Notes under the pieces: generated by a model
Databases searched by the model: none
What the model was told of the DNA's origin: nothing
What the model saw: the letters and a program-made list of their open reading frames with translations, nothing else
Part shown: piece after piece, positions 9,269 through 60,361 of the stretch
How positions within the stretch are numbered: the stretch's first letter is position 1
How the letters are laid out: each line of letters begins with the position of its first letter
Made by a program: the position numbers and the translations under genes
Assembly: GCF_026571515.1 (NCBI RefSeq)
Contig: NW_026867291.1
Location: 1-64,000, forward strand
Reading direction: 5' to 3'
Source of the DNA: Ruditapes philippinarum
Lineage: Eukaryota
Length of the DNA: 64,000 bases

Positions 9269-9496
9269 TGAGACCCGCGATTACAAAACCAGCATAGTGC
9301 GTTTACGACCAGCATGGATCCAGACCAGCCTGCGCGTCCGCGCAGTCTGATCAGGATCCATGCTGTTCGCTTACAAACCCTATTACAAGTAGAGAAACAA
9401 ATAGCGAACAGCATGGATCCTGATCAGACTGCGCGGATGCGCAGGCTGGTCTGGATCCATGCTGGTTGCAAACCCATTTTGTCATGGCGCAGCTCA
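9269..9496. mobile_element. Palindromic MITE, family P (TGAGCCGCGTCATGACAAAACC termini)
   Basis: Near-perfect internal inverted repeat (agcatggatccagaccagcctgcgc...gcgcaggctggtctggatccatgct). Absent from the paralogous site at ~22140. Confidence 0.9.
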
Positions 9497-11714
9497 TTTT
9501 AGCCAACTATGAGCTTTTGATAAGAATGTTAATTTAAAGAAGTTAAATTCTTTATCGAAAAGAGTTTCATCATTATAAAAAACTGCATTTTTAAAAAAGA
9601 AACAAATGTAAGCATTGTTTATTCTATCAAAGAAGGAACAAAAACACATTTCTTGTGATACACGGCGTAATAAACTGTCTATCTGTGTGCTTACTAAGAT
9701 AATATGTGACAGAAAATATAAACAAACGTTTTTTTATGATAACAACCAAGGTTAAACACTTTTATCATTCAGTAGGGCGCCCGGTTTATATGTAACATAT
9801 TATACGCTTTATACTGGTTAAGAAATATAGTAAAAGTGTTATTAAAATAAATACAATACAAAAATCAATATAACAGACAGTGGCGCTTTTATGATCTCAA
9901 TATTAATAAACATAAAAGATTTTTTTTCAAAGCATTCAACTTACATGTATTTTAAACAAGTTAAACAAATAAAATACATACAAAGTACAAGTCATGTTAT
10001 TGATAAACTCAGCAAAGATTAATTGGAAAATGCAGATAGTAGTTTATAGATATCGTTAATTAGGGCATAATCTAACTTGAAATTTGATAACGCGCTTGTA
10101 ACACAAAAACAAGTTTTACCTTGACCTAAAGTTCATTATGTCAAATGCTCTATCTTTATGAACTCACATATTGTGTAAATCTATTTGATAAACTAACTTA
10201 GAGTGCCGAAAATAACCTTGTAGAAAATATGTGTTTTCCGTTGTTTTTCTGGTTTTTTGGGGGTTTTTTTGTTGTTTTTTTTTTTGTTTCTTTACAAAGA
10301 TAAATAGCGTATAGTTATTTTATTAAATATTGTTGTTGTTTTTTTTTTTTGTTTTTTTTTTTAATAATATGTTTTTTCCTTTGTTCTCAATACTTTTTTA
10401 AGACTTAAGACCACTGCACCCGCTTTTATAATATCGACAAACTTTGAAGGAGTCTTTAACGTATTTCCATTTAAAACTTGATTTCATTCTGTGTACATAT
10501 TAGGTTATTTTATTTTTGGAAATCACAGTATTGTATAATATTACGTAGAAATATTCAAGTTACGTTAAATAACAGAGTAAGGACTAAGGATATACTTATC
10601 GGGAGTGGGGGGTGACACAAATGTGAAAATTCGATAAAAAAGCATAGCTTTAAACAAAATTAACCCTCATTTTGCGGGGAAAAACACACGAACCAAAAGA
10701 AAAGTATATGAGGTGTTCAGCTATAGCATTCTCTTACAGGCTTTTTTATCTTTTGGTTTATACAATTTTGTTTGTTCGATTGATAAGGAATGTATTAGCT
10801 TAAGGTCTTCAGCGTATCCAATTATTACAATGACATGACGTGAACGCTGAAGACAGACCCGTAGGGAAAGTCCACCAATAATCCAATAAACCAATAATCG
10901 GACTAATATTCACTTTATTACGTCACTACCAGTCCGCTTTCTAAATGTTGGGTTTAATATGACTTTATTAAAATGCATGCTTTTAGGTCACTATGCGCGC
11001 GAAGACGCTTGTACCCTTGTGTTTCAGTTGCATATGCAATGGTAGGATACTACGTCATCGCACACCTGCTAAATGCTCCCACTTGGACCATTTTTTCGTC
11101 GACTCGAAGCTTAAATACAATTTTATTATAAGAAAACGTAAGAGTATCAAAAAATCATGTAGCGCACCAAAGATGGCTATAGTTCTTGAGATAATTGTAA
11201 AAAAAGTTTATAGATCCATTGCCTAGTTTAAAAATAATTTTCAAGAAGGTTTTCATCCTTATTTCTTATATGTTTCGGGAAAAGTCCGAGTGGGAGCATT
11301 CAGAGAAAAACACTTATCCCGTTTTCAGGCATAAACCAGGCAATAAATCTATAAACATTTTTTTATATCCTGTGAAATTTAACATATTGACGTAAGTTTT
11401 ATCTATTTGATTACGTTTGCAAATTTGATTTTTTATCAATTTCAGCTTTGTTTTTCTTGAAAGAAGCCTGGTAGTGTTGGAATTGTAAGTGATGTACCAA
11501 ATGGGGACAGTATAAACAAGTTTTAAATTCATTAAAAGGTGGGAAATAACGAAATTATATTGATAATATTTGTATTTATGAACAGTTCACGAATAAATCA
11601 GTAGTCCACTTAAAAGCAATAAATATTGCACAATGATGACTACATACTTGTCTGTACAGCGTTAGCTTAAAACGCAATGATGACTACATACTTGTCTGTA
11701 CAGCATTAGCTTAT

Positions 11715-16467: not shown

Positions 16468-17880
16468 TTAATCTCGTGACATGAAAGAAAATGGAAAAAC
16501 CTGACTAAAATAGTTACCAAGAATCACACAAATAGTCGTTGTAGAACAATATATTAGGAAAACGATACATTTATCATCAGTTGTGAAATAAACCATGAAA
16601 CAGTGAATTCCAAAGCATATTCCAATTATAATAGAAACAAGCATAAAACATTTTCTTATTTTTTGTGCAATCATTTTTCTTTGAATACTTTTCAAGTATG
16701 CCTTAACATTTTGGTTTTCTATATCACGGAAACAACCACCGTTTTCTGCGTTGTTTACTGCATGTTTCGCATACATTTCGGCGGCTTTAATATTATTTTC
16801 TTCCTCGAGTACGGCTAAACACAGATTTAATATCATTTGCCGCCGAATTTGGATTTCATGACTGCAGCGTTTAATCTCTTTCAAAATTTTCTTTGCGCGT
16901 TTCTTATGAATTGTTTTGATCTTCGTTATGTCGCAAACCACGAAATCTGCTGTTATGAATAACAATGATAATGCCATAAACAATAGCATTATTCTTCTCC
17001 AGAGGTTTTGAACGTCCTCACTTTCTTCATTCAAACTCTGAATAGCTATATCTCCTTCAACGAGAATCTTTTCCAACATTTCGTCTGATGGGTTTTTAAA
17101 GTAAAGACATTTATATGTATACTCAATGTCATGGAACGCGGATGTTACCGCAAAACAAGGCATATACATTAAACAGAACTCTTTTGTTTTAACGATATGC
17201 TCTTCAGCTTTCCGAATATTACCTGCTTCAACTTCTGTTATTGCCATTTTTGAATGGAAAACAATTTGCAATGATGTATTATCAACCCCGTTCGTTTCTG
17301 TACCTATTGCTTGATGCAATATTCGTTTGCGTTCTTCAACGTCCTTGTATTGCTGAATTAGTAAAACTGTAGCTGCTGCTTTTCGCTCCATGGCAAACTG
17401 TCGATCATGGACCGATATTTCATCACTACTCATCATGATTTTTTCATCTTGTTTGTATATGAATTGCATTAATATTACTCTTTTATCACCCCAAAACAAA
17501 TTATTATCTATGCAGCTTTTAATATGTTGGTAGTAATCATGTGTCCGTTTAGAATGAGGCATTTCTATTTGTGGGAGTCTCCTGTAACGAATTGTATACC
17601 TTTTTGTTCTTAGATCAGAAGCGATATCAGTATACCCCTCTTCTTCAAATAGAAAACAAACGTTGTCATACGACAAAAGGGGCAACAAATTACGTAGAAG
17701 CTCAGCGATTTGAACATATCCAGAATCGTCTAGTGTGCTATGCAAATTATTGCATTGCCGTTGATCTATTAAATTTAGTTTTTTCAGTTTTTCAATGAAG
17801 CTGCTAATATCAAAGTCCCTCCGGGTGTGATGCTGAAATACTTCCACAATGCACTGGCGATCCCTTCTTATGTTAGCCAT
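16468..17880 (-). CDS. Uncharacterised 470-aa protein: N-terminal CARD/death-fold-like domain, alpha-helical (TPR-like) body, two C-terminal hydrophobic helices
   Basis: Intact ORF. ATG at 17880 is preceded by an in-frame TGA and a tttcag acceptor at 17925-17930. The N-terminal ~90 aa show a CARD-like pattern (FIEKLKKLNLIDQRQCNNL...IAELLRNLL...FLFEEEGYTDIASDL). Hydrophobic FMLVSIIIGICFGIHCFMVYF and CIVFLIYCSTTTICVILGNYF. The domain call is pattern-based inference. Confidence 0.85.
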   Translation of the reverse strand: MANIRRDRQCIVEVFQHHTRRDFDISSFIEKLKKLNLIDQRQCNNLHSTLDDSGYVQIAELLRNLLPLLSYDNVCFLFEEEGYTDIASDLRTKRYTIRYRRLPQIEMPHSKRTHDYYQHIKSCIDNNLFWGDKRVILMQFIYKQDEKIMMSSDEISVHDRQFAMERKAAATVLLIQQYKDVEERKRILHQAIGTETNGVDNTSLQIVFHSKMAITEVEAGNIRKAEEHIVKTKEFCLMYMPCFAVTSAFHDIEYTYKCLYFKNPSDEMLEKILVEGDIAIQSLNEESEDVQNLWRRIMLLFMALSLLFITADFVVCDITKIKTIHKKRAKKILKEIKRCSHEIQIRRQMILNLCLAVLEEENNIKAAEMYAKHAVNNAENGGCFRDIENQNVKAYLKSIQRKMIAQKIRKCFMLVSIIIGICFGIHCFMVYFTTDDKCIVFLIYCSTTTICVILGNYFSQVFPFSFMSRD

Positions 17881-18579
17881 TTGATACAATTTGACCAATC
17901 AGTATATTGATGTATCAAGGAAATCTGAAATGAAGATAACTAATGTATGCTTTCTAACGTTTATTTGTATAACATACTTTATAGTGCAAGACCATTTTCC
18001 ATTCACTCTCAAGACCTTTTACATAACACTGTTAAGTTTGTACGACCTTCATATTGCAATCTGGGAATGTAGAAGACCATTTAAATTACTCTTAAGTTAA
18101 TGTTATATTCTAATGTTTGTAATTTGTATTATACATGTATATATAACATACATTTGTATTTATCTAATCTAAAATGACCCTCCTTATAGTGAGTTGCATG
18201 ATATGTCTATCAATGTCTTAAAAATAAAACCGGAAGTATTTAACTGTACAATCTAGTAACGTGGTGGTCAAGTCCACTATCCCGGTATGGATACGTTATC
18301 ATATTGTTTAAGTTGTCACTAGGTAAACATATAATTATAATATCACGCAAAAAAAAAAACAACTGTGTCATTTATTTAGTATACATATATCACTATCAAG
18401 AAAACTGTTTCTTTTTCTTATCCTTTTTATTGTTTATTTACTTTTTATTTTTATTTATTTATATATATTTATTTTTTAGGTTTTTTAGTTATTAATTTTT
18501 TTATCTATTTATCTTATTTTTTTAATATTTTTTTAATTTTTTTTTTTTGTTTTTTTTTTTTTTTGGGGGGGGGGGGTTT

Positions 18580-22625: not shown

Positions 22626-23164
22626 TATGGTGGCATATTTCTGCCACCAGATAACCTGATAACAAACTAGTTAATTAAGAGGTTAACTAGTTACGTAACT
22701 AGTTAACCTGATAATTAACTAGTTAATTAAGAGGTTAACTAGTTACGTAACTAGTTAATTTTTTCAATAAAGAAAAGATCATAACGGGAAATAAATGCAT
22801 GTTAGTGCCTGCAACTGCCATCCTTTTATTATATCATCATCTTAAAATTAAGAGGTTAACTAGTTAAGTATTTATTTAACTAGTAAACCTATTAATTAAC
22901 TAGTTAATTATCAGGTTAACTAGTTATGTAACTAGTTAACCTCTTAATATTAAGCTTACAATAAGGGATGGCAGTTTGCAGGCACTAACATGCATTTTTT
23001 TCCCGTTATGATCTTTTCTTTATTAAAAAAATTAACTAGTTACGTAACTAGTTAACCTCTTAATTAACTAGTTAATTATCAGGTTAACTAGTTACGTAAC
23101 TAGTTAACCTCTTAATTAACTACTTAATTATCAGGTTATCTGGTGGCAGAAATATGCCACCATA
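22626..23164. mobile_element. Foldback/palindromic MITE (539 bp) with 6-bp TSD GATAAA
   Basis: Termini TATGGTGGCATATTTCTGCCACCAGATAACCTGATAA and its exact reverse complement. GATAAA at 22620-22625 and 23165-23170. The empty site in unit 1 (~10002) has a single GATAAA. Confidence 0.93.
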
Positions 23165-25553: not shown

Positions 25554-28500
25554 TCAAATTTCCAGGATACCGAATACATGGGCCCAAGGATATGGGGACA
25601 ACGAATGAGAAATAACGTTTAGATAGTAAGAAGCGGTTTCATGACTCGGTACCTTAATGACTTTTTGAAAATTTAAGGATAGTGAGAAGGAGTTCGTGAC
25701 ACCCATGCAACTCTGCCTAACATGTGCTATAGCATTATTATGCCCTCCACTGTCCTCTATTATTTCATATTGAAACACCCTGAAAAATAACAGACAAAAG
25801 ATGGTAATAATGTATAGACATCTTCATGTTTTATAAATTCATCAGTTTCATTTGTTACTTTTCTGAAGCCAAGGAATGCCATTTTATTTCATCCATTCAG
25901 AACTGTCCCTATTACTACAGTTCTATGTAGTCAGGCGTTTATCACTTACACATCATCTTTTTACTAAATCAATAAAACAAACTGAGCTTAACATGTTTAA
26001 ATGTTGAATTCTGCTTAAGCCGATGCAAGGGGGTATGAACGGTAGCTGTCCATGAACAGGCTCAATCAAACCAATGCTGCAAACGTTTCAATTTTGCCGT
26101 TTTTGGCGGTTTTTGTTAATTCTGTTTTTTTTCTATTCATAATATTTTCTAAAATTAATGAAATTTACAAAAGTAATTAACTATCACATCATCATGTTTT
26201 TTATACGTGTGTACGTAAATTTTATTACTTATATCATAACCTATGATACTCACTCGCCATCCGTGCAATTATCTTTCTTGAACTGTATATTTGTGTACAT
26301 ATAAAATGTTCCGCCACTTTGAACGTGCAATCCGTTGTTGTTTGTGGAAATGATGTCTCCAATTTTAATATCTTGTTGCCATTCAATAGAATTGGATTTT
26401 GCTAAACAAATATAATCAATAAATTGTATATATATAAATAGAATGTATAAGCACGATTTGAATTATGAAAGAAAATATTTAATCATCTAATTGGTAGGCG
26501 ACCCTTAACATTACGGACTAATCTTGAGACTATAAGAATCTTTTTTCATCATGCAAAATAAAAGTTTACTCACTTTTTTTTCAGAATCTTTATGACATTT
26601 TAACTCTTTAACGGACTGGTCTTATTTGAAAGTACAGTAGGCTATGACAGGGCCACTTTCATTGTATAACTAGCAATACATTCATTGGCGTTTAGATATT
26701 TTAAAGAAAATACGCTTAACAAATTTGCAAACGAATTTATAAAGTGAACTGTTCGATACCCATTTAAGTATTTTAAACATACAAATTAAACCTTAAGAAA
26801 TCTTTTCACTGTCATTTGTATCTAGATTAAATTACATTTCAATATCTTCGATAGAAATTTAAATCTGTTTAGATTTCGGAAAATGCGAAACTAAATGACG
26901 AAGGTTGAACTTCACCTCATGTATATTCCTATTTTATCAGTTGGTATGTATTTTCTTCAATAATTCTGTATCAATGCTTAATATCTATTAATTCGACTTA
27001 CATAATAATATTTTGATTTTGATTTCTTCAACTATTTCAATAGAAAGCCGAAAGCCTTTAAGAACACTTCAAACGGAAAAAAGGAAACTGTTACAGGTTT
27101 GGTTAAAAAGAAGCCTGTTCATGAAAGAAAGTTGCCATGTGCAAGCTACTGTCCACCCCTTAACACCGGCTTAAGCAGAACCTAACGTTAAACCACAATT
27201 ATAGTGAAATCTATCATTCAGAAACATCTGCAGAGGAACTTATACATCGGGATTAGGCAAATCAAACCTTAATTGCGAAACGTATGTGTAATTCCATGAG
27301 AGATGGAGTATAAAAAATGCATGTGTTCTAAATAAGAACAAGAAAAGCATTGATGCTTAGCATCAAAGGGCGTCCAAACAAGATATGCAGCAGGTGCAGA
27401 TGAACTAGTAGATATATAATGACAAGATATTCTTATAAACTGTTCAATGGTTCATTGGTTTTTACCAGAATTGTATATCACTTATGAATGAACGAACGAA
27501 AGACATTGTTCATTATTTATAACTTTGATTGGCATGCTAGAAATTAGAATACTACTTGCTATTTCTTTATGATCGTGGTTATTAATAGCAACGGATATAC
27601 ATGTATACAATCATTTATAATCCATATGAGTAACGCATGATCAACACCACACTTGTGTAATTGTCCCTTATTATGTTATCGCTATTAGCGAAGACCCCCA
27701 CTTAAGCTATCTGTTCACACTTAGTAACAATATGACACTTGTTGTATTACCATGTTGAGCATAAATGTTTATTATACACTAATTGTAATATCTTTTTTAA
27801 TAAAAAAATACAGATTTTATGAATATTGTTTTCTTTTCTTTTTTGTGTTTTATGCACTACTTTAATACTGAGTTTTTACGTTTACTACTATTTTAAGAAC
27901 AAATTGTCATAATGACCGACGATTATAAGTCAAAACTCAACAGGAAAAAGTCAGTAAATTATGGTTAAACTTTCAATATATAATATTGTTTATTCTTAAA
28001 CCATATACATGTATATACATTTGTATTTTTCTTTATCATTTTTTAAATTATCAATCAATTGAATAATTCATAAAATCTGATTTGTAACTTTGAATAATTC
28101 CTCGGCATCTTTACTAAACACGAATAACAAATTAAATAAAATGTTTCAAAGTTGATAGTGTCATATTAATGCCATAAAAATGTACATTTTTTCTCAATTA
28201 TTGTACATATTTATTGTTTTTATCTCAGATAGATAAAATAAAACATGCGATTTGTGTTGTTGGTTTTTTTTTCGAATTGTATGTTTATGTATAACAATAA
28301 TCAATAAATTTGAGAGTTGATCTATTTTTATTAATTATTGTAACCAAACTAAGTGACAAACATTCATTTTGAAAAAAAGCTTATTTATCTGTAAAATATT
28401 TGTTCTGTTCTGTAACGATATCAAACATCTACTCCAAAACCGGAAGAGACCGGACAATAAACGTGTGGTACTATTCGCCGGTCGTCAAAATAGACCAGGA

Positions 28501-31500
28501 GAGACCGGGAATTACCGACAAGAGTACATCTATAAATAGATTTTCGGAATATTTAGGTTATCAACTCAACATTCTATTTACAGCTTTCGGAATAACATAC
28601 CATAATAACCCACTGTGTACTTCAAAATGATAAATAAAAATACCCCGAAGAGCGCGATTTATTGACGGAAAAGGTTAATTAATAATTCGAAATTCTCCAG
28701 TTCGCTATTCATTGTAATTAATAATCAAGCACCCTCATACCGATCGGAATGATCGACTTTTATTATGAACAACTATAAAGGCTCGAGAAGTTGCTGTCGC
28801 CCTTTCACAAAATCTGATTTCATTACATAAAAGGCGCCGCGCTTCGGCGCGGACGCCAAAAATAATAGACATAACTAAATAAAATGAATTCTAAAATACA
28901 AAGTATATTCATGCAAATATTGACTTGGATGAAATTGTTTTATTAAAATTATAAACAACAATTTTTACTATTATTTTAAATCACCTAGTTATTGGATATT
29001 TTCCAAAGTATTTTTTATTTTATTTTCGGACTTTGTTCTAAATTCCCCTTTAAATATTGACAACTAATAAGCTAATTGTTTTATTTCATATATTTATTGT
29101 CATTGTTGGCTTACCAATGGTAATTATATCAGCGATTATTTTTAAAATACTAGTATTCAATTTCATTTTTGTCTAAATTTGGCATGAACGTTTAACTATT
29201 GTACAAATGATACACTAAGCAAAAATATATAAATAACAATTCCCTGTGATTGGTAATTATAATACATGTACATTTGACAACCTCTATCTATTTTTAGGTA
29301 TGACGTCAGAGTGTTTATTTTAACCTATGAGTTATAACGAATAAAAATTTATTAAAATCACCAAGTAGAAAAATACACAATCCAAAAAGAATGCGACTAA
29401 ATCCGACAAAATATAGAAAATGGAATACCTAAAGAACGGCCAAAACGACAAAATTGAAAATGTTGCAGACTCGGTTTGATTGAGCATGTTTATGTACCTC
29501 GCTGTAAAGTTACCGCCCAAGTCCTTTATCTTTGGTTCAAGCAAACCTTAAATGATGCAAGATAGTTTTTGATAAAGCCCACTCAAAGATAGTGGTATGT
29601 GCACTTGCACCGGTCTAAGCAGTATGACTGTGTTGAAACTTTGAAGAAGGAAACATTTGTTGATCGTATTATATGAAGGTGACAAATGAGGCTGACATGA
29701 AAAGGAGTGAACGGTCTCCAATTAAATGAATTCGTGTGTCGTAAACAAGAACACAATCGGCGGAACAAAATTGAATCGAATATTGAAAATGCATCCAATG
29801 TCATGCTGCCTGCATATCACAGACATATATTAAAAGACCTGAGTTACACTTTCCATGTTCTACACAGAATTTAAAAATACATTCATTTATAACGGAATAG
29901 AGACTATATACACATTTTGATATTCACCCTTAGGATAAAATGCATGCTTTTTATTAATTAAAAAAGCAGGCATTTTATCCTAAGGGTGAATATCAAAATG
30001 TGTATATAGTCTCTATTCCATTAAAAATGAATGTATTTTTAAATTCTGTGTAGAACATGGAAAGTGTAACTCCGGTTTCGATAGTTACCCATTTCTCAAT
30101 CTAAATTGCCAAGAGCATAATTATTTTAACTGATCATGAATAATAACTTTGAACATTTAATTACCGTTTCCTTTGAGTTGCATAGAAGAACGTTTCCAGT
30201 TTAGTAATTTATTCAATAGTTTGTTATTGACTGCCACTCGACTTTGCAAAACGGTTCTTTCAAATATACTTTGCGATGATGCAGAATGTCTATGCACGTC
30301 TTTATTTTCCCTGTTATGCTGAAGGATAATTACTTCGTCTTCTAACTTGATAATCCCTAGAAACAAAGACAATTAATAGCGCCAATGGTAAGTCAGCTGA
30401 ACCATTGGTAATTCATTTTATAAAGACTGATTCATTATAGTTTAATACGATGGTTTGTTTGAAAATTTATTGTAAATTATAATTTACCTGAAATTAATAG
30501 GGGGATATTTCAAAGTTGCTGTCTTTTTTGCTTGACCTACCGTTTATGGAGTTCGTAAGTTAGATGAATGCTGGAAAATCTTCAACAAGTTTCATAAATT
30601 TACTAAGTATGTTTCATAAATGAAGGGAATTAAGTAATTAAATTAGAACCATATATCACATATATTTACAGGCATTTTTCAATTTATTTTTATTTTTCTT
30701 CTTTTTCTTTTGAGATAGAGAGAGGGGGAGGAAAGAGGAAGAGAGAGAGAGAGGTATAGAATAGAGAACGGGTCGGCATGACCACTCAATGCGTTGGACA
30801 GTTGAGGTTTTTAAATTCTTAATTGCCATTCCCTTTTTAACAAAAGAAATTAACATTACAAGATGTAACTTACTGTTGTGATGCTCTTGTAAACTCGAAG
30901 AGTGTTTTTCTAATTTCTGCGGAAACAAATAAAGACAATTACTAGCACTGTTCATAATTATGGAAATCATACCACAGCAATACAATGAAAACATTTAAAA
31001 ACATATTAATTCCTTTATTATTTAAAGCAAATCACATAATTATATAATTTGAACAATATATACCTCAGTAAATGTGTCTTTGAACGTTGTAAAGTCATTA
31101 AATGCATTCTCCTGACAACATTCCAGTTCACCTGGGTCTCCAAAGTCTTTACTTTGATATGAATGTCTTCCTTTTTCTTGGCATTTATCACAGAAAATTT
31201 GCCTTCGTATTATTTCTTTAGCTCTTTGTGAACGAAGTTTTTCGAATAAAATTTCTTTAAAAGCCACTTCCATTGTTTTAAATATTCCATGACTTTCAGA
31301 TTTGTCATTGCCATTTGGACGGGTTTCCATTCGAAATGAAACCAAAATAACTGCCAGAACAGAAATCGTACAAATTATCAACACGATGCATAGAATCGCT
31401 AGGATTAAGAACATTTTTCTTAAACTCTTATAGCTTTTCTTGAGTTTTGAAATTTTAGAATACTCCGATTTGAAGAATCTCTTACATTCTTCTCTTACCC

Positions 31501-31828
31501 AGTCATCTCTAAGCAACGGGATTGCTTCTTGTGTATTGCCCTCGTTTTTCATTAATGTATCTGGCTGTTGTCTTTTGAATGGTATTCGGTTGCTTGTCAA
31601 TTGAGACTGTACAGGTGCAAAGTGTGGTTTCTCCCTATGGCACTGGGTGTAAAAGCCTGTGGCGGGTGTAGAAAACTCCTCATCCGCATTTTTAGTACCT
31701 TGTCTCGAGTGTGTTTTTGGATTGTACCCGGAAGTAATGTCTTCGTCTGACACATCTGTTTCCTCGGAATATTCAGAGACGTTAGTTGTGTTCGAACTCT
31801 CGCTTGTGTATCGCGCGTGTGAATGCAT
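25554..31828 (-). CDS. TNF-superfamily ligand, paralog 1 (type II membrane protein, ~457 aa, 5 coding exons)
   Basis: Exons 31828-31064, 30916-30874, 30356-30165, 26401-26254 and 25779-25554, all GT-AG with phases 0/1/1/2. TM MFLILAILCIVLIICTISVLAVILVSF. TNF homology domain: SSMQLKG...SIEWQ...NNNGLHVQSGGTFYMYTNIQF...HVFGILEI*. Confidence 0.9.
29841..30072. repeat. Near-perfect 232-bp palindrome in intron 3 of TNF paralog 1
   Basis: gagttacactttccatgttctacacag...ctgtgtagaacatggaaagtgtaactc; arms ~110 bp with a few mismatches. Confidence 0.95.
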
Positions 31829-32150
31829 ATCTTCAAGAGGAATTAGTTGTGTTAGAACTCTCGCTTGTATGTTGTGCGTTTAAATGCATATCTTCAAGGG
31901 GAATTAGTTGTGTTCGAACTCTCGCTTGTATGTTGTGCGTTTAAATGCATATCTTCTAGGGGAATTAGTTGTGTTCGAACTCTCGTTTGTATATTGTGCG
32001 TTTTAATGCGCATCTTCAAGAGTAATTAGAATTAGTTGTATTCGAACTGTCCTTGTGTATCGTTCGTGTAAATGCATATCTTCAAGAAGAATAAGTTGCA
32101 TTTGAACTCTCGCTTGTGCATCGTGTGATCAAGAGAAATTAGTTGTCTTG
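31782..32150 (-). repeat. 61-bp minisatellite (~6 units) overlapping the start codon of TNF paralog 1
   Basis: Unit ttagttgtgttcgaactctcgcttgtatgttgtgcgtttaaatgcatatcttcaaggggaa recurs at ~31782, 31843, 31904, 31965, 32032 and 32092. Confidence 0.92.
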
Positions 32151-33059
32151 TGTATCCTGCGTGTACATATTTTGTTTAAAATAAACAGACACGAGAATAC
32201 TCGTTTCTCTCATCGAAATTTAATAATCCTGCAAAAAAATGTATGTGAAGGTAAAATCTTTTTATTAAAAAACGGAGTAACATAGATACGAACAGCAAAA
32301 ATCTGTTATATATATTTTTTTGTTTCTTCGGTTATACATGTGACGGTATAAGAGAGCAATTTAAAAAATATTGTAGTTTTATCTACGTACGTCCGCTTTC
32401 GAACAATTATGATATCATACATATATTGTATATTTCACCCAGTATATTTTAAATGTAGTTACAACAGACATTTAATTAAATTTTAACTTCCTCCTTAAAC
32501 TTAAATCTTTATTTGAGTAAACAGTTATTCATCAAACACAAAACTTCCTAGTTATAAGAAATATATTTTTAATTATATGTTTAACTTCAGTCACCAATCA
32601 TTGGCATTAAACTGACTAGCAATTTTATTATACTTTAAAATACAATTCTTAAAATTCCAATGATTATCAAAGTATTTGGCGGAACTATTTGTTGATTTGA
32701 CTTGATTTGTTAACATTTTTATGTGTCATTACTTAATATGTCCAATGGTTGTTTTGTTGAAATCACTGGAATAAGAATGTAATTTGATTCCTTCCTTTTA
32801 ACCTATTTGATGTGACGATCATATTATTAAACTGAGTACGGTCCAATAGAAAGGTGTATTGAATCGCACAAAAAAGCATTTATGACTGAAATGAAATCTT
32901 TTCAAGGTTGTACATTACAACGTGTAAGGACGAGACGAAATAATTATTCTTCGCGTTCGGAAATTCAAGTATTTTTCTCTCACTTAAATTGAAGAGAACG
33001 TTGAGTACAATCACATTAATGGTTATCAATTTTTGATCGATGCTGAGTTAACATTAAAT

Positions 33060-33345
33060 GATGGTGGGGTTGGTAGTTTTCACTCCGGATCACGGCCGTA
33101 AGCCACATTGAATTTACAAGAGCACAGTTCAGCAACCGCATCGTTCCTCGGCAGACTATCAAGCAGTTAACCTGTGCTAGTTTTCTCCATTGAAACTTCT
33201 GTACATGCCAGAGCAGTGGTACAGTTCGGAATGCCGTAGAAAATATTTTATGATAAATCACAACGGAAGTGACCTGTACAGTTCGGGAATCGAACCCGTG
33301 TCGCCCGAATTCACAGTCCAGTGCTTTACCTTTTGAGCTAACCGG
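33060..33345 (-). mobile_element. tRNA-derived SINE, family B
   Basis: Head ccggTTAGCTCAAAAGGtaaagcactggactgtgaattc...GGTTCGATTCCc (A and B boxes). Body (aactgcttga, ctgaactgtgctct, gtggcttacggccgtgatccg) is shared with 37735-37965. Confidence 0.75.
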
Positions 33346-33886
33346 TATAAACATTACGTGAAGGGGCGGTACATTGTATTTAAACAGATGATTTTAATAT
33401 TTTTTTATTTTTAATAAATGATAAATAAACAAACAAATAAATAAATAAATAATGAATAAATAAATAAATAAATAATCAAAACGTTTTCAAATAAGATGTA
33501 CTCATTAAGACATTAACACAAACGCGTCGTGTTCAAAATATCTTGTGTTAGAATGTTTCATTTAGAAATAAAAGCAAATGTAAGGGGATATTTTTAGTAT
33601 GCTTTTTCTATTAATTGTTTTATCAATTATTTACTATATGATGTATTCGGTTTAGTAAACCTTTTTTAACGATGAAAGTATAACAAATCAAAATAATAAT
33701 ACCTTTCTTAGTGACTCCGTACAAAGAATATATAATACCTTGATAAACATACTATGATTCCGTTCGTGTCGCTTGTCTGACAAATAGTAGTATATATCGC
33801 AAGTTAGGTAATTCATGCCTAAAGAGGAAGAAGAAGTATATTATACGGATTACCTGAACGTAAACGTGCTTACTCTGAAATATACT

Positions 33887-33936
33887 TATATAATCTATTA
33901 AGCTATTCCGGGAAAGTGTATATTATCTTCCATGAA
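33887..33936 (-). promoter_or_regulatory. Putative promoter of TNF paralog 1: TATA box plus two STAT/GAS sites
   Basis: TTCCGGGAA (33906-33914) and TTCCATGAA (33928-33936) match TTCN3GAA. TATATAA on the minus strand at ~33893-33887. Candidate 5'UTR donor AAG|GTATTA at ~33702 and acceptor at 32229. Confidence 0.5.
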
Positions 33937-37734: not shown

Positions 37735-37965
37735 TAACAGCTCGTTGTACTGTGAATCGGGCGAGCCTCGTCATATCTTAAATCCTTCTCTACGGTCATT
37801 CGCCCTGTATCTCTCGCGCTAGTAGTTATCAGTTCATTGCATAGTATAGGCACTTGTACGAGTAAACTGCTTGACAGCCTGTCCAGGATCGATGCTGCGG
37901 CTGAACTGTGCTCTGATGGAGTCTGAGTGGCTTACAGCCGTGATCCGCAGGATAACCTAACACTA
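37735..37965 (+). mobile_element. SINE family B, degenerate copy
   Basis: Shares body motifs with 33060-33345 in the opposite orientation. Confidence 0.55.
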
Positions 37966-38340
37966 CCACCAAGAGTCACAACATAATGATTTTATTGCAG
38001 ATACAACAATTTATACTTTATACATATTAACTTCCCTTGCTCTCCTTTGTTATCAGTAATATTTTGTCATTTTAGAGTTTAGATTTCCAATACTTAATTC
38101 TTTTTATACACAACACACTTTTCATGGGCTCTTATCAGCAAACTCAATGAAAATTAATAAATTTGATCTAATCGAAATGCTTGAAGTCCAAATACTTTTT
38201 CCCTATCCAGTTGTTGTGTGTACAGTTTTCCAATATCATTACATTTATATAAAAATACATTCTTTATCTTTCAAGTGATTCTTTTTAAAAACTTGGTTAT
38301 TTTAGATTCTTTTGTCATTTAATTCAGGAAGTCTGCTAAA

Positions 38341-40123: not shown

Positions 40124-40561
40124 CATTATCAGGGACACTTGTTGAATCTTCGACAGTTATAAAACAACAATAAGAAGCGCGTTCTTGAATTGGTTCAACT
40201 TCATATTAAGTTTATTCGTTAGCATAGATAGTTTTGTTTCATTTTGAAATTATTGAGTCAAAGAGTAAGATATGAAAACAAAAATCAAAAAGGAAGGGCG
40301 ACCATTTCTGGTTGTATATTCCATGCTGTTTCCTGCTTATCTCGACAATTACTATATGTAATATCTGCAGAATCATTTATATTTTCAGCAGTTTCAATGG
40401 GTTGTTCAAGTGTTAGTCTGATACCAAAATGTGAACGACAAGACGACCTAACAGTGTGTGCGTGCGATTCCGACTACTGCAACAGATCTTCTAAAACACG
40501 GATATTTGAGCCGTTTATATCTTGTATCATATTTCTCCTTGTAGCAATTATTTTAGACTGA
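38341..40561 (+). CDS. Ly6/uPAR (three-finger)-type small protein with signal peptide and probable GPI signal, 108 aa, 3 coding exons
   Basis: Exons 38341-38395, 38963-39061 and 40389-40561 (phase 1/1, GT-AG). Protein: MKYLHLLFGLAFISCVFNGVASIQCNQTLTVHQTNPDVFCEGSCVKSIKGETVSMGCSSVSLIPKCERQDDLTVCACDSDYCNRSSKTRIFEPFISCIIFLLVAIILD. Terminal CxCxxDxCN motif, hydrophobic tail, AATAAA at 40609. Confidence 0.88.
40060..40122. repeat. (AAT)n(ATT)n microsatellite
   Basis: Seen directly, in intron 2 of the Ly6-like gene. Confidence 0.95.
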
Positions 40562-45827: not shown

Positions 45828-47030
45828 CGAGGGGTGATCAAGAATTACGTAGACTGGCTCAATATCTCATTTATTGTTTGACAAACGTACATAAAACTTA
45901 TATCACATGAAAGTACGTTTTATCAACAAACAACATGCAATTTTGATTTACAATATGTTTACATAATTCGGAATAACAAACCATGAAAATGTGTCACTAT
46001 CGCGGTACCGGCCCACGTCGTGAAAAAACTCTTGACGTCAGCGACGTCGCAGCGTCGTAAGTATTGAAGGAAAAGCGTCAACTGGCACATGACATTCACT
46101 CTTTTTCAAAGTACAAGCCAGAACATGCAATGCAACGTTCATGCCTCTTAGGCCACTGAGAGAAGAATATATTCCTGTAATACTCTGCTGGATACTGACG
46201 TATTAGGGTGTTTGTCGCTGACTGTAACTCCTCCAAATTCTCAAAGCGCTGGCCCTTCAGCTGGCGTTTCAAATCTGGGAACACTGAAAAATCAAACGGA
46301 GCAAGGTCCGGGGAATATGGGTGATGAGGCAGGAGTTCAAATCTTATGACACCTATTGTGAGCTGTGTGGAGGCTGCCGTATGCGACGATGCATTATCGT
46401 GATGCAGTACTCAGCGCCCGGATAAAATCTCGATTCAGCACCTGTTAAATTGTGTATTTTATTCAGATGCATGTTCTGTATTATTTTGTGCATCGGCACG
46501 TTAAATAAAATTATATCGTTGCTCGATTTAATTAATGAAATCATGGGAGAAATAGTTTTAAAGGATTAAATTAATTGATAGTATTATTTCAAAATAAATC
46601 TTATAAATAAAACGGTTACAATACGGATACGGATACATGTAACTATTATTGTCATTATTGTTTAATAAATGTATAAATATAGTAAACATTATATTTTACC
46701 TTCGAATAATAGTCTGCATTGATGGTAGTCCCGACTGGCACTGCATGGCATAGAAGCATACCCCTGCAGTCGGCGAACATCATGTACATCTGTTTTCCGG
46801 CAGATCGTCCTACACGGGCTTTCACTGGAGGTGGCGACCCTGCTTGCCTCCAAACAGCAGACTGTGCCTCGGTTTCTGGATCTCTAAAGTATAACCAGGT
46901 CTCATCAGTCGTGATCACATAGTCCGGGTTCGATCTGAAGCGTCGGAGAAATCGCCGGGACTCCTGCACTCGTTTATTCATTTCCACATCTGTCAAGGGG
47001 CAAGGAACCCACCGGGCGTGAACCTGCAAG
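45828..47030 (-). mobile_element. Mariner (Tc1/mariner DD34D) transposon remnant, 5'-truncated, intron-containing
   Basis: Motifs ARWVP, ITTDETW, LHHDNA...H, PYSPDLAPFD (34 residues between the 2nd and 3rd D), C....G.YFEKE*. One TIR, TA|CGAGGGGTGATCAA, at 45826-45842 next to a (CTA)n tract. Frameshift/deletion between RAL and VLHHDNA. Confidence 0.93.
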
Positions 47031-48288
47031 GTTTCAAATGTTTATACTTGATAAGCAAATATTAAGGTATTTTGTAAAATTATTTAAGTTTTTTATACAT
47101 TGTTTATAAATTTGAATTACGCAGCATGTTTGAAACAAATGTGTATCCGCGCATTTTATTGTTTATTGTTTATAATAATGATCATGATAATACAATAGTT
47201 TTATTAGTAAGAAATATGAAAATAAAATAACAATAATAATGTCTTGCGACAGAAGTGAACAGTCAAGAATAGAAGTTAAGTCAATATAGTTGATTTCAAC
47301 ACACTTTCTCATCTCCATACTATGTTGATAGTAAAAACAATACTATCAGCTATTCATTTTAAATATTATACTGTATACCTTGCCTTGACCTAAATATTAT
47401 GATAGTAGGTAAGTATATGCGTTTTATCAAAGTTAAAACGAGAACAATGTGCTGTTTTTTATATTTAAACATAATATATCATAGTATTATTTAATTTGCT
47501 TAGCTATCTATACGCCCGTCACATGTTTTGTTTGTGTTTACTATTTTATTTTTTAATTCTTCGATCTCTATGTAACACAGAAGTTATCTGACCAAAACAG
47601 TATAGAATTGTAAATGTTTTTATTTATCTTTTCTATTTTATTTTCGTAATCATCACCAGGATGTACTTCATGACGGACTTATAAAATGTCTAAATCTGCG
47701 AACAGCTAATTCACTATCTTCTTCTGATAACCTAGTTTAATATTGTATCGATTCATTTAAACAACTCTGTATACAATCAAAAATTAATCTATTTTTATGA
47801 CTCAGCTAAGTGATAAGAAGAATCAACAACATGTCCAGTAATTTTATAATTTGATACAATGGTTAATTTTAATGTCACTAGTAAAATTATTAAAGAAAAA
47901 AAATAATAAGTTCCCATTTTTCATAAAATATTATATGAATACCACTTACAAAAATCAAACTAAAACGAAATTAGAATATCGACTAGTATATCACGTTACT
48001 TCTATTCAGCTCCCCCATGTCACTATAAATTACTACAAATAACAGATGTTGTTTATATAAACACTAATGATAATATAACAATAAAAATAGTTTGCTGCCA
48101 AAATTATGAATAGATTTAAGTTCACGATTCTTTATTTAACATTGTCATACAAATATTTATTTCACTTTGCGTTGTTTACTCTATACCAGAATAGAATGTA
48201 TTTCTTTTGAGGAGAGTCAAGAAGTTTAAAATCAAATCACTGCATGACAATCAAAAAGAAAATACTAGTGCCTGTGAGTGAAAGTCTA

Positions 48289-50269: not shown

Positions 50270-50940
50270 TAGGGAAAATAATGTTCTGCCAGAATGTTAA
50301 GCAGGCTAAGCAATTTAGCTAAGTATATAGTAAACATATTCTGCTGGAATGCTTAGCTCGAAGAGAAGTCTAGCGGGGCATTCCAAAATATGCTGTAACA
50401 AATGCTTTGTTAGAAGGCTCAGCTGGCTTGACAATCTTTTAGTGCATTCCTAAATATAGTGTAAAAATACTCTGCTTGAATGCTTAACTGGCTAAGAAAG
50501 CTAGTTGGGCATTTTTAAATATAGTATAAAATTGACCTGCTGAAATGCCGAGCTGGCAGAGCAATCTAGCGGGACATTCTTAAATATAGTGTAATAAATT
50601 TTCTGCCGCAATGCCGAACTTGCAGTGCAATCTAGTGGGGCATTCCTTAAAAAAATGTAAAAATGCTCAGCTGGAATGCTCAGCTGGCATAGCAATCTAG
50701 CAGAGCATGTTTAAATATACAGTCATTAATGCTCTGCAGAAATACAGAGCCGGCAAAGCAATCTTGCACGGCAACTTGAAATATAGTGTAATAAATGTTC
50801 TGCTGGAATGCTCAGCTGGCTATGCAATCTAGCGGAACATTCCTGAAATTAGTGTAAAAATGCTCTGCTAGGATGCTCGGCTGGCAGAGCAATCTAGCAG
50901 AGCATTCTGAAATATAGGGTAAAAGATGCTCTGCTTGAGT
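50270..50940. repeat. ~61-bp tandem repeat, ~11 diverged units
   Basis: Unit approximates gctctgctggaatgctcagctggcagagcaatctagcggggcattcctaaatatagtgtaaaaat. Confidence 0.9.
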
Positions 50941-54727: not shown

Positions 54728-56918
54728 TCAAATTTCAATAAGACCAAAAACATGAGTCCATGGGTCTAAGGACAAAGAATGTGATGATACGGTCATAGAA
54801 AATGATTCCCCTTGACGTACATCTACGACCTTCTGAAAATTCAAGGATATCGCAAAGGAGTTCGGGAAACCAATGCAGGTCTGTTTGACATGAGCTATGA
54901 TTCTCTTGTATCCGTCTCTGTTTTTAAATATCCTATATTCAAAAACCCTGAAAAATAAAAATATCTCGACGTAAGAATAGTTACAAGATATACAGATTAT
55001 CAAGTTATTTCAAAGTATTACCATTTCATTAACCTTTCACCTCATATAGACGTGTTTTGGCGGCTTTACCCCCCCCCCCCCACCCCACCTTGAGGCTTCA
55101 AACAGTGAAAAAAATGCCCTATTTAGGCCCCAAACACTTTTTCGTTTGAGAATTTTTTTTTTTTTAAGTGAGCACTTTTTCAGCCCAACCCCCTATCAAA
55201 AAGGTACATCAAGGGGCCAAGAACATTTTGGACATGTGACAGGCTAAAAATGGCCTCAGGTCGATCTTAAGGTAACGTGTAACCAACGCTGAAAAGCCTT
55301 TTACTCTATCTCAATCCATTGAAAAGTTGCAGCACTTTGAAATCAGTTTGATAAAAAAACAATGCAAAATAGTGATTTTTGGCGTTGTCATGGTAACAGG
55401 AAATTTACGATAGAGCATGCTGTTATAGAGGCTTGGCCCAGTCAAGATTTGTGCCAAGTTTCATAAGTATTAAAGCATTCTTCATAGTTTCATAGCAGTT
55501 TCAACTATTAACCCATTACACGATATAACACGCCTTGTATCGCCTTTTTCACCCCACCCTTTTTGTTGTCTCAAATGGTGAAAAAATGCCTTATTTAGGC
55601 CACCAGCACTTGTTTTTGTTTTGAGAAATGCGACCACTTTTTCGGCGCGCCCCGTTATCTAAAGGATACATCAGGGGGATGTGCCCCCTTCTGTTTGGGT
55701 GGTTTGAAGGGGGCGGCAACTCCCTTATAGCCAAGAAAACTTTGGATTTGTGAGAGGCTAAAAATGACCCCAGATCAATCATAAGGTAATGTGTAACCAA
55801 CGTTGAAAAGCCTTTGCCTCTAACTCAATCAACTGAGAAGTTGCAGCACTTAAAAATCAATTGTGATTGAAAAAAATAACGCAAAATAGTGATTTTTTAG
55901 CAATTGTGTTGTCCCCTCGATGCCATGGTAACAGCAAATTTAAGACTGAGCACGTTGGTACAAAGTCAATGGAGCAGTCAACATTTGTGCCAAGTTTGAT
56001 TAGTATTGAAGCAGTTTTTTTTTATAGTTTTATAGCAATTTGAACTTGTAACGGGAGACTTTTCAATGAAAACAGCCATTTTTCACAAAATGCTCATGAA
56101 GTAATGGGTAAACAGGTGGCTTTTCAATGAAAACGGCCATTTTTTCACAATATGCTCATGCTGTAAAAGGTTAATGAATGATTGAATTAATCAATTAATT
56201 AATCCAGTCATTAATAAATTAATTTATTTATTTATTTTATAGTAATACCAACAGTAAATTAAGTTTATTGCCCCTCTATCGATTTTCGAGTTGACTGGGG
56301 TTTATAGATAAATATACCTTTGGTAATGATTATAAGCTATGTACAATTAATTTATAGTCATCAAAGTACACTGCTCAGTTTTAATTGATACTCACTCGCC
56401 ATCCGTGCAATTATTTTTCTTGAACTGTATATTTGTGTACAAATAATATGTTCCTCCACTTTGAACGTGCAACCCGTTGTTGTTTGTGGAAAAGATGTCA
56501 CCATTTGTTATATCTTCTTGCCATTCAATAGCATTGGATTTTGCTACAATGATAAGAACAATATTTTATTCAGAATCCATGCTATTCGCTATCAGTTTCT
56601 CTACTTGTTATAGGGTTTGTAAGCGAACAGCATGAATCCTGATCAGACTGCGCGGATGCGCAGGCTGGTCTGGATCCATGCTGGTCGCAAACCTATTACG
56701 TTGGTTTTGTCATGACGCGGCTCATTTTATGAAACGATAGGTCTAGATGAAAATATTAACCTATATTTTTTATTTAAGAGATAATAAACAATGTAAGTCT
56801 CAGCAGTTTTTATTGGCTATTTAACACCAGCTTGACCATAGGATCAATTTTGAGAAATATTAAGATGGGCATATTACCTAAAATATATCTACATAAAGCG
56901 ATAAAATGAAATTGCTGC

Positions 56919-56950
<32 letters not shown>

Positions 56951-59158
56951 GATTAAATGCCGAACATGTTAGTTTTCGGAAAAAAAATCGGGCAGTTTTA
57001 ATTTTTCGAAATCCAGTGGAATTTTTCCAAATCCGATTAATATATATACATGTATAATATAGAAATAAACTGCAGGTCATAACGATTACTAAATTTAAAT
57101 TCTGATTGAATTAAAAAAAAGATGTGTATGTAGTCTATAGTATATGCCATTATGTCTTTTCAATCTGTCAATTCACGGATCCATTAATTACTTTATTTGC
57201 ATTTTTCAGTGTTATGTCAGTAGCATTGACTTTTAATTTGATCAAATGTCGTAAAGTATCATTTTTGCCATGTTTTAATACTAGATAAATTAGCTTTGCA
57301 ACAGGGTACGCTCTTTCTATGCTAACTTTTTGTACGAAGTTTTAGTAACACCAACATTGTTTGAGTCATTTTGTGACTCTCCAGGTTTTCTGAACAGGTG
57401 CCCCTTCCGGCCTAAGCGGGAACCTGAGTCGGGGTTTTTTTGTAATAGGGTTCTCGTTTGTGCCTGAAATAATGTCCAGAGGCACGTCTGGGGTCTTCTT
57501 GTACAAAAAAGCTTGAAAGTTATCATATCACCATTAATTTAAGATTTTATCAATAAAACACATATATCTTTTATTCTAATTGAAAATAAAATGCCTAAAG
57601 TAGTAGTATAAAAACAAAATACCTGTCCCTTTTAGTTGCATAGAAGAACGTTTCTGGCTTAGCAATTGATTCAATAGGTTGTTATTCAGGGCAACACGGT
57701 TTTGCAAAATTGTTCTCCCAAAAATATCTGGCGGCGATGTTGAAGTAATGTTTCCCTCTGACTTATTGCCGTTATGTTGAAGTCGAATAACTTCATCTTC
57801 CAACTTAAAAATCCCTAGAATAAGCATAATTGATCATTAGCTGCTGGATGTATGGTGGCTGATTTGTGCCATGTCGTATTTCGCTCTGCTTGGCGACAGG
57901 CGGAAAACACAAAAATACGACATGTGTTATTCGCCTTGCCCTCCGCTGAGCTAAAATACGACGATTCACAAATCAGCCACCATATGGATGCGCTATTTAT
58001 TACTAGTTCATACTTTGAAAATGTATGATATAAATAAAAGAAATCGCACACGTCTTTTTGTTTGATTTTCCGACTTAATATCGTTGTATAGTTTTTCGAA
58101 CGTGATAATCTTATGACTTACTGTTGCCAAGGTCTTGAATATCCTTGAAGTATGATTGCAATTTCTGTGAAACAAATAAAAAATAGTTTAGTTTCACACA
58201 GACTTAGAATATAATTAATATTGAAATCATTTTGTTTACTTTCAAAACATATTTGAAGCATTGCAATTAATTTAGAACAGATATCAGTCATAAAATCAAA
58301 TTATTCTGTACATAAATCTAGAAATCTGAAAAGATAATTAATATGTTAATAAACTTAACATGAACTACCTCTGTAAATGTGTCTTTGAACGTTGTGAAGT
58401 CATCAAATACATTCTCCTGACAACATTCCAATTCGTCTGGGTCACCAAAACCTTTCCTATCGTATGAATTTCTTCCTTTTGCCTGACACTTATCACAGAA
58501 AATGTGTTTTCGTATTATTCCTTTAGCTATTTGTGAACGAAGTTCCCTGAACATAAAGTTTTTAAAGGCCTCTTCCATCGCCATGGTCGATAATGTACCG
58601 GAGGATTTATCATTCGTATCTGGACTGTTTCCCATTTTAAACGAAACCAAAATAACTGGCAGAACAGAAATGACACAAATGATCAACACGATGCATAGAA
58701 ACGCTAGAATTATGAACATTTTTCTTAAATTCTTGTAGTTTTTCTTGAGTTTTATAATTTCATCGCACTCAGACCTGAAGAGTCTTCTACATTCTTCTCG
58801 TATCAAGTCATCTCCTAGCAACGGTGCACGTTCGTGTGCATTTGCAAAAAGACCCCTGACTAAAAATTTCCGAAATGTGCCTTTGGGAAAAAGATTTTCC
58901 CCCCATTTTTAAAAATTTCAATTTTGACTTTTAACAACACGTTTTTTCTGCCCCTGTAAACCCCATGAAATTTTCGCCTACGGCGGCATCCCGATATCCT
59001 GCCCCCTTGCAAAAAGGGGATGCTTTTGGATTTTTTGGCGGGTGGCGGAAGGACGGGCGCCAAACCCGAAAAAATGGACACCCTCCCCTCTGTTCGGTAC
59101 TCCGGGAAAAAATTTTTTGTGTTCGAATCCCCCTCTTTTTGTATAAAAAATTTAGCAT
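54728..59158 (-). CDS. TNF-superfamily ligand, paralog 2 (5 exons; 5' part of exon 1 frameshifted as assembled)
   Basis: Exons ~59158-58369, 58164-58122, 57814-57623, 56543-56396 and 54947-54728. Internal exon sizes (43/192/148) and phases are identical to paralog 1. THD AIEWQ...NNNGLHVQSGGTYYLYTNIQF...HVFGLIEI*. The frame is clean from ~58845 downstream; the start codon is uncertain. Confidence 0.82.
55029..56174. mobile_element. Nested piggyBac-like (TTAA) MITEs in intron 4 of TNF paralog 2
   Basis: Outer TTAA|CCTTTCAC...GTAAAAGG|TTAA (55029-56174). Inner TTAA|CCCATTAC...GTAATGGG|TAAA (55508-56112). The two bodies are homologous. Confidence 0.8.
56574..56724. mobile_element. MITE family P, half copy
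   Basis: Ends ggttttgtcatgacgcggctca. Confidence 0.85.
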
Positions 59159-59465
59159 GTCCTCCTTTGAAACTTTCTAATAGCAAGTCTAAATCACTGT
59201 GTTGTTTTTGTTGTTGTTGTTGTTGTTGATGATGATGTGCAAATCTAGCACTAATAATTATACGGAGCATATAAGATTTTAATGTGTTTATTTTTTTGTA
59301 AGATATATAGAACTTTCATAAACTAAAAAAACGAACAACTGTAATTTCCTTCTAATAGACAGATTCTGGCAAACTTCTCTCTCCCGCTCACTACAACGTA
59401 TGATAAGTAAACCCTGCAAGAATGTAAGTATAGAAAAAATTAGCATCGCTTGACCTAGATTTTTT

Positions 59466-60342: not shown

Positions 60343-60361
60343 ACAAAATGATATAATTTAA

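Follow-up and report, generated by a model that had tools for sequence, protein, structure and literature searches.

A start-codon minisatellite forms upstream open reading frames in the leader of a TNF-superfamily ligand gene of the clam Ruditapes philippinarum

The TNF-superfamily genes of the window

The window, a stretch of 64,000 nucleotides from Ruditapes philippinarum (contig NW_026867291.1, positions 1 to 64,000 of the forward strand), consists of AT-rich animal DNA with a GC content of 26-38% and contains two TNF-family genes, paralog 1 and paralog 2, on the minus strand (Table 1). Exon A of paralog 1 was a 100% match to XP_060578481.1 (LOC132735542, R. philippinarum), and the paralog XP_060578479.1 was also matched. 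Five exons with GT-AG ends reproduced the RefSeq protein, and 457 amino acids were obtained when reading from ATG 31828. A different scaffold carries an intact copy of paralog 2, XP_060567002.1 (P0004), which also has 457 amino acids; it starts with MHAHVLYTREDSNTTN, and its start aligns to ATG 31828. Judged by its conservation in venerid relatives, ATG 31828 is the main start. The RefSeq start at Met93 probably lies too far downstream, and in both RefSeq models of the scaffold the N-terminal tail appears to be missing (92 residues in paralog 1 and about 142 in paralog 2).

Table 1. Features of the two TNF-family genes and of the minisatellite in the window.
Feature	Position	Strand	Remarks
Exon E	25554..25779	-	Remainder of TNF domain and stop
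Exon D	26254..26401	-	First part of TNF homology domain
Exon C	30165..30356	-
Exon B	30874..30916	-	43 nt; both joints in X1, X2 and X4, not in X17
Exon A, coding part	31064..31828	-	ATG 31828, Ser/Thr-rich N-terminal motif (codons 6-12), cytoplasmic tail, transmembrane helix, Cys-rich stalk
Met139, in frame	31412..31414	-	Start of transmembrane segment; A at -3
Met93, in frame	31550..31552	-	Weak context; start of RefSeq XP_060578481.1 (365 aa)
Core minisatellite	31782..32117	-	61-nt period, 5.4 units
U0	31842-31782	-	Functional copy
U1	31903-31843	-
U2	31964-31904	-
U3	32031-31965	-
U4	32091-32032	-
U5 and U6	32092..32188	-	Two decayed upstream units with internal deletions
uORF	31833..31889	-	18 aa; main-start context GAAGATATGC; stop 4 nt before ATG 31828
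uORF	31894..32013	-	In-frame starts at 32013 (39 aa) and 31950 (18 aa); stop 4 nt ahead of ATG 31889
uORF	32003..32101	-	Starts 32101 (32 aa) and 32077 (24 aa); extends past ATG 32013
uORF	32032..32121	-	From ATG 32121, 29 aa
uORF	32139..32213	-	Starts at 32213 (24 aa) and 32168 (9 aa); located at the decayed edge of the array or upstream of it
Splice acceptor	32229..32230	-	AG after T-rich tract; TGCAG|G context, same as paralog 2 at 59414
Candidate promoter and first-exon donor	33855..33914	-	TTCCCGGAA at 33914-33906, TATATAAG at 33892, AG|GTAATC at 33855; inferred only
Paralog 2	54728..59413	-	Five-exon layout as in paralog 1; one start unit at about 59158; 2 uATGs in 255-nt leader

The initial annotation as a TNF gene was borne out by profile, predicted fold and family matches. 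P0002 and P0004 scored 31 bits with Pfam PF00229 (cut-off 23), while P0001 remained below the cut-off with 18.2 bits. A profile of 13 relatives matched APRIL/BAFF at 6e-10 and FasL at 4e-6. The predicted structure of P0001 is a jelly-roll beta-sandwich with a pLDDT of 79-92 over residues 231-365, and its best Foldseek matches were CD40L, LIGHT, FasL, lymphotoxin and TNF (E about 1e-9 to 1e-7, target TM 0.63-0.80). On profile and predicted structure the gene is a TNF-superfamily ligand, with the C-terminal domain placed firmly in the superfamily and no preference for TNF-alpha. The description as a 'potent cytokine' had been borrowed from mammalian TNF-alpha and could not be kept, with the best matches spread over CD40L, LIGHT, FasL, APRIL and lymphotoxin and with dozens of TNF genes in hard clams. 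The single hydrophobic segment peaked at 3.38 (residues 145-163) and was preceded by 7 K/R in 15 residues and followed by 3; this agrees with a predicted type II membrane topology of one helix with basic residues on the N side.

The accessible text of PMC8905726 gives about 76 TNF genes for hard clams, many in tandem, and the clam gene resembles the venerid expansion described there in its tandem paralogs, one transmembrane helix and one C-terminal TNF domain. The same portion of that paper describes no leader regulation. The nearest named relatives were Mercenaria LOC123553907 and LOC123553902. Among 24 sequences scanned, 8 carried the motif R-x-[TI]-S-[ED]-S-S near the first Met (within residues 1-25), corresponding to 6 distinct genes and including three named Mercenaria loci; many of the 16 sequences without it were truncated or distant, and an aligned variant is present in P0003/P0004. 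It follows directly after the first Met in P0005, P0006, P0008, P0009, P0011 and at 31813-31793 (-) of the window. The tails of the venerid TNF subfamily sharing this Ser/Thr motif otherwise differ by hundreds of residues, and the motif is a candidate phosphorylation site for reverse signalling. Casein kinase I motifs in the tails of mammalian TNF-family members are used in reverse signalling, as far as the excerpted text of PMC6389649 goes, and by resemblance the clam motif may be a casein-kinase reverse-signalling module. A further sequence, P0007 (a 2556-nt contig), was 89% (204/229) identical to exon A of paralog 1 with a 5-aa insertion and is either a third paralog or a very diverged allele. 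Its called protein begins only after 25 residues, near the expected place of the array.

Upstream of paralog 1, what we take to be a STAT-type site, TTCCCGGAA, was the only strict match in the window, and a presumably TATA-like box, TATATAAG, was found 22 nt downstream of it. Together with a good donor at 33855, these make the segment 33855-33914, which lies beyond the region onto which contigs were mapped, a candidate inducible promoter of paralog 1.

The start region of paralog 2 had 38% of its bases in runs of at least four, compared to 8-10% in neighbouring coding DNA. The 5' coding part of paralog 2 at 58830-59160 (-) looks like a corrupted copy of the N-terminus of P0004, with 100% identity up to 58839 and 45% with frameshifts thereafter; this pattern points to a likely assembly error truncating the RefSeq model of paralog 2 to 317 aa. 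A (CAT)(CAA)n microsatellite at 59183-59240 (-) occupies the paralog 2 leader about 45 nt before the start. The upstream regions of the two paralogs have just a mobile element and a weak AT-rich match in common.

Several other elements were observed in the window. A second minisatellite (50340-50935; period 65, 9.1 copies, 71% matches) lies between the TNF paralogs, as does a Cys-rich ORF with a hydrophobic tail and a weak ET-module match (E 0.086) at 40232-40561 (+), which looks like the last exon of a gene for a small GPI-anchored protein. Tandem paralogs at 2057-3121 and 16471-17898 (-) encode a single-exon protein of 355-470 aa with no Pfam match; the longer one has C-terminal hydrophobic segments, and the pair is located inside a larger segmental duplication. 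Broken pieces of a DDE transposase (46099-47041, -) and of a reverse transcriptase (5438-7401, -) were present, together with several copies of palindromic MITE-like elements (22646-23144, 9266-9532, 56570-56726, 60360-60602 and 61252-61476).

The minisatellite and its upstream ATGs

A tandem array of 61-bp units at the TNF start had been described initially, and Tandem Repeats Finder recovered it at 31782-32117 with a period of 61 nt, 5.4 copies, 83% matches and a score of 429. The peptides, ATG positions, 4-nt gaps and acceptor given for it were all exact on the minus strand. The units are arranged head to tail, and their length is within the 10-100 nt of a VNTR. A 20-nt motif of the unit occurred five times in the window, every time inside the array (chance mean 0.01; 5 copies were reached in 0/100 shuffles), and two decayed partial units carry the array on to about 32170-32188. 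Because the Ser/Thr motif recurs near the first Met of relatives, the duplicated unit can be recognized as the conserved N-terminal motif of the venerid TNF subfamily.

The identities to U0 by unit were 54/60, 52/61, 53/61 and 53/61 (10-15% diverged). U1 and U2 were identical at 59/61 positions and are the sole young pair of units, indels are present in U3-U6, and the differences from unit to unit range from 3 to 20%. The longest exact repeat within the reference array was 41 nt. A repeat coding in frame for a long N-terminus was rejected, as none of the three frames is open across the array and the relatives begin with a single unit. The statement that paralog 2 is without an array held in that no such repeat family was found there, but its start region is low-quality sequence here.

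The array likely arose through slippage or unequal crossover where the head of the unit (CTAA-TTCCTCTTGAAGATAT) has a short resemblance to the stretch following the last unit (CTAA-CGTCTCTGAATAT). Relatives carry N-S-S at residues 16-18, like the upstream copies, and this, together with the resemblance of the post-array sequence to the unit head, is why slippage or unequal crossover over short homology fits. With a period not divisible by 3, every copy would close as an 18-codon uORF instead of forming a longer N-terminus.

The leader comprises 400 nt from the exon start at 32228 to ATG 31828 and contains 8 upstream ATGs (uATGs), which open ATG-initiated reading frames upstream of the main start in the same transcript. 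The uATGs listed in the initial annotation (31889, 31950, 32013 and 32077) all exist, but four more had been missed (32101, 32121, 32168 and 32213). ATG 31889 (-) encodes MHLNAQHTSESSNTTNSS*, whose stop ends at 31833, 4 nt ahead of ATG 31828, and ATG 31950 (-) encodes MHLNAQHTSESSNTTNSP*, whose stop ends at 31894, 4 nt ahead of ATG 31889. The stop-to-ATG gap of 4 nt is repeated because of the 61-nt period, and the two gaps are not independent observations. ATGs 31889, 31950 and 32077 share the context of the main start, GAAGATATGC. ATG 32013 is in frame with 31950, giving one uORF of 39 aa, and is a new ATG 2 nt upstream of the place of the copied ATG; like 32101 and 32121 it is a mutational gain within the decayed units.

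The number of uATGs in the leader was not in excess: 8 in 400 nt compared to a shuffle mean of 5.3 (P=0.10). The background of the window was 8.4 ATGs per 400 nt, and at least 8 were present in 59% of 314 bins. In the part of PMC3045505 that treats the subject, uORFs in real leaders tend to be fewer than expected by chance, and by that measure even a neutral density of ATGs remains high in a leader. The leader of paralog 2 has 2 uATGs in 255 nt. The folding energy of the leader was -77.8 kcal/mol (z=-1.8; 4/100 shuffles as good), a weak signal.

Transcription, selection and length of the array

Contigs from 4 of the 24 runs listed were mapped onto 30100-33400, namely X1, X2 and X4 from three studies, and X17. 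X1, X2 and X4 were taken as RNA solely from their GT-AG joints, and X17, which was without them, behaved as DNA. The joints 30916/31064 and 30355/30873, with CT..AC ends, were found in X1, X2 and X4 and not in X17. Contig 24 of X4 (2675 nt) continued unbroken from 32320 to 31064 through the array and was GT-AG-joined to exons B and C, and contig 18 of X2 covered 32275-31064. Cover in X4 ends at 32327, which was not counted as a sign of a transcript start. As a spliced contig runs through the array into the coding exons, the array is transcribed as part of the leader, which confirms the position in the 5' leader assigned to it initially. The summed contig depth of X1 was 22-47 over the array, which was covered in pieces, compared to 0-2.5 in the intron bins 30433-30876, which were used as the silent control. 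X2 also had an unspliced intron contig with a depth equal to that of its exon contig; the contigs give neither transcript starts nor levels and may fuse pre-mRNA and mRNA paths. A high-copy interspersed element was observed at 33062-33300 and 37862-37971, in the putative first intron, where the summed depth of X17 exceeded 100,000 and that of the spliced runs was also high.

That the array is transcribed yet bypassed, and neutral, is a fairly unlikely reading. Most mRNAs would then begin within the last units or shortly before them, or be spliced at a weak acceptor, CCCCTAG, at 31956, with little effect on output. The depth of X1 declines towards the 5' end, from about 40 to 22 across the array, which also fits starts inside the array; the RefSeq model starts downstream, at Met93; 31956 is a candidate cryptic acceptor; and the main ATG, to judge from constraint on the N-terminal tail (see below), is used while the uATGs are without selection. 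Against this reading, contigs of the spliced runs (three runs from three studies) reach or pass 32230, and no joint skipping part of the array was found among the 15 of 31 joints listed. In addition, one X1 contig matches exactly from the acceptor at 32230, after 14 loose letters. Three other contigs pass the acceptor unspliced. The X1 contig ending at the acceptor had 11 differences in 188 nt and may be a diverged allele or a third copy like P0007.

The possibility of an assembly artefact was considered in view of the corrupted stretch at paralog 2 on the same scaffold. The units differ by 3-20%, and the array was recovered with allelic SNPs in contigs from independent runs of two further studies, by which an artefact is practically ruled out.

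The N-terminal tail looks constrained. With 40 of 186 substitutions listed, 5 of 9 SNPs between ATG 31828 and Met93 were silent compared to an expectation of 0.22-0.27 (P 0.03-0.07 in this small test), 7 of 9 were at third positions, no stop was present, and the one indel was in frame (9 nt). In the rest of exon A 7 of 9 SNPs were silent. Constraint on the tail implies that initiation at 31828 is probably still frequent enough to be visible to selection, and a brake in the leader is probably not an off switch.

No purifying selection on the uORF peptides was found, the differences of U1/U2 being at all codon positions. The 7 coding differences between U1 and U0 comprised 2 first, 2 second and 3 third positions, U3 and U4 are frameshifted, and the Arg-Tyr of the family is lost in U1/U2. 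ATG retention in three lineages equalled the neutral simulation (total 3 compared to a mean of 2.87, homologous 2 compared to 2.00). The SNP density of the array was not in excess of that of the coding exon (2 listed sites in 346 nt vs 9 in 765 nt, Fisher P=0.52), a comparison of low power that gave no excess decay. Neither conservation nor enrichment of the uORFs was found with the shuffle count (P=0.10), neutral retention and absence from paralog 2 taken together.

Selection for the brake itself, as dosage compensation after duplication or as restraint of a cytotoxic ligand as with thrombopoietin, is very improbable. It could draw on the new ATGs in decayed units (32013, 32101 and 32121), on the merely 2 uATGs of paralog 2 and on the listed substitutions of X2 (15 of 17) and X4 (15 of 16), which spare all 8 uATGs. 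The latter is the chance expectation at this density, and the number of ATGs fits shuffles and neutral decay.

The initial annotation had also proposed a VNTR with a copy-number-tuned output. Compared to the reference span, the contigs of X2 and X4 showed a net change of +6 nt with 12 gap letters and no 61-nt step; the coding tail has gained 9 nt in frame, and 3 letters are lost. In X2/X4 the allele at 31867 leaves 28 nt as the longest exact repeat, instead of the 41 nt of the reference. Since 28 nt is shorter than a 31-mer (we take the run contigs to have been assembled with k=31), the array of X2/X4 could be resolved without collapse. The contigs of X1 and X17 break inside the array, for which the 41-nt exact repeat is a sufficient explanation. 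All 15 listed substitutions are common to X2 and X4, which are probably one haplotype. The unit number equalled the reference in 2 of 4 runs, both of them resolving the array and probably representing this one haplotype, while the other two break inside it. Two haplotypes with the same array length argue weakly against variation. Metagenome scans for array alleles or the paralog 2 leader found nothing.

A variable repeat, in which the unit count would set ligand output among individuals, is accordingly held to be improbable. It would agree with the 59/61 identity of U1 and U2, by which the array gained a unit fairly recently, with the breaks in the X1 and X17 contigs, and with a modelled output dropping stepwise from 0.41 to 0.09 over 0-5 units (see below). 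Both resolved contigs match the reference unit number, no joint skipping or going back by 61 nt was present among the 15 of 31 joints listed, the exact repeat accounts for the breaks, and one young unit alters the modelled output by only 1.16-fold (0.54-1.65). Interrupted arrays with 83% identity are expected to be stable. The labels 'VNTR' and 'copy-number-tuned' were therefore not retained: the resolved contigs are at the reference unit number, the array is old and decaying, and one unit changes the modelled output about 1.2-fold, sometimes in the opposite direction. As the copy number is the same in the readable versions, the array is probably a tolerated duplication accident and not a tunable dial.

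Predicted brake and comparison with known systems

Our preferred reading, which we consider somewhat favoured, is that of an old slippage array whose extra starts would act as a fixed, mild, few-fold brake on the full-length protein, tolerated and not tuned. Scanning ribosomes would face three copies of the main start's context and five other ATGs. Ribosomes finishing the last uORF would stop 4 nt before ATG 31828 and would mostly be unable to restart there, and the full-length protein would be made via leaky scanning and restarts after earlier uORFs. According to the accessible part of PMC3045505, short distances from uORF to AUG impede reinitiation, and C/EBPalpha still reinitiates at 7 nt. 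The loss of output would be tolerated, probably via close paralogs and compensating transcription; the tandem redundancy of TNF genes in hard clams implies that a weaker copy can be absorbed.

For illustration, output was calculated with a toy deterministic model of leaky scanning and reinitiation using 96 assumed parameter sets and mammalian start-context classes. The modelled full-length output of the native leader was 0.09 (0.004-0.43) of that of a uATG-free leader. With 0 upstream units, which leaves two uATGs, it was 0.41, and for paralog 2 it was 0.76. Five upstream units compared to none gave 0.25-fold (0.03-0.88), which is about 4-fold damping, and the 1.16-fold change mentioned above resulted from deleting one young unit. 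In the Drosophila data excerpted from PMC6070289, multiple translated uORFs lower efficiency by 18-61%, a milder effect than in the toy model. By the scanning rules given in the available sections of PMC3045505, a leader of this kind would be expected to restrain full-length translation.

The geometry is also that of C/EBP-type genes, with a uORF ending a few nt before the full-length AUG and downstream in-frame AUGs. In the same sections the short uORF ends 7 nt (C/EBPalpha) or 4 nt (C/EBPbeta) before the full-length AUG, the start context is intermediate, and downstream in-frame AUGs give N-truncated forms. The C/EBP genes have a single conserved and tested uORF there, while the clam has a stack of unconserved, predicted uORFs copied from its own start in one paralog. 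By analogy, C/EBPbeta would be the closest mechanism, and otherwise the clam leader would work like an ordinary multi-uORF leader.

A switch of this kind, in which the last uORF shunts ribosomes to Met93/Met139, giving a ligand without the Ser/Thr-rich tail, with stress/mTOR setting the ratio of long to short forms, appears rather unlikely. The 4-nt spacing is as in C/EBPbeta LAP, whose uORF drives the short isoform (PMC3045505, in the portion cited above), and CKI motifs in TNF-family tails mediate reverse signalling (PMC6389649, likewise in part). Both paralog 1 and its close copy P0007 carry Met93, which P0004, P0005 and P0006 lack at that column, and the modelled share of the short form was 0.25 compared to 0.11 without uATGs. 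Against the switch, Met93 is in weak context, and five out-of-frame ATGs lie between 31828 and Met139. The modelled short share was also flat over unit number (0.23-0.28 at 0-5 units), the two uATGs upstream of the array already giving it. The combined proposal of a start-codon minisatellite that varies among clams and dials both the amount of ligand and the ratio of long to tail-less forms, as a self-made switch of C/EBPbeta type, is likewise highly doubtful.

The favoured reading of a tolerated, fixed brake has a further parallel in thrombopoietin, where leader uORFs of a signalling ligand lower output in the accessible text of PMC3045505; the lowering is predicted for the clam. Unlike in thrombopoietin, as far as that text describes it, the clam array is of repeat origin, shows no sign of selection and has no link to a disease or phenotype. 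No case of a start-codon-bearing minisatellite building uORFs was found in the literature searched, whose coverage excluded most subscription papers, and within the same coverage nothing was found on uORFs of bivalves or molluscs. Minisatellites or VNTRs in 5' regions, of which TYMS and INS are examples, resemble the array in having head-to-tail units near the gene start. Unlike the VNTRs of TYMS and INS, the clam unit carries the start codon and the first codons, the units are diverged, and length variation was not found in resolved contigs.

As a mechanism this is ordinary uORF biology, and the brake function is predicted. Slip-copying of a start with a period not divisible by three would be a one-step route to a stack of uORFs with the gene's own start context. 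The RefSeq models, apparently shortened, conceal a Ser/Thr motif that is conserved in a venerid TNF subfamily. Should the brake be borne out by a reporter, the array would offer a clean natural series with which reinitiation could be measured in a mollusc, and if length alleles exist, it would be a PCR-scorable candidate marker for immune dosage in the farmed clam.
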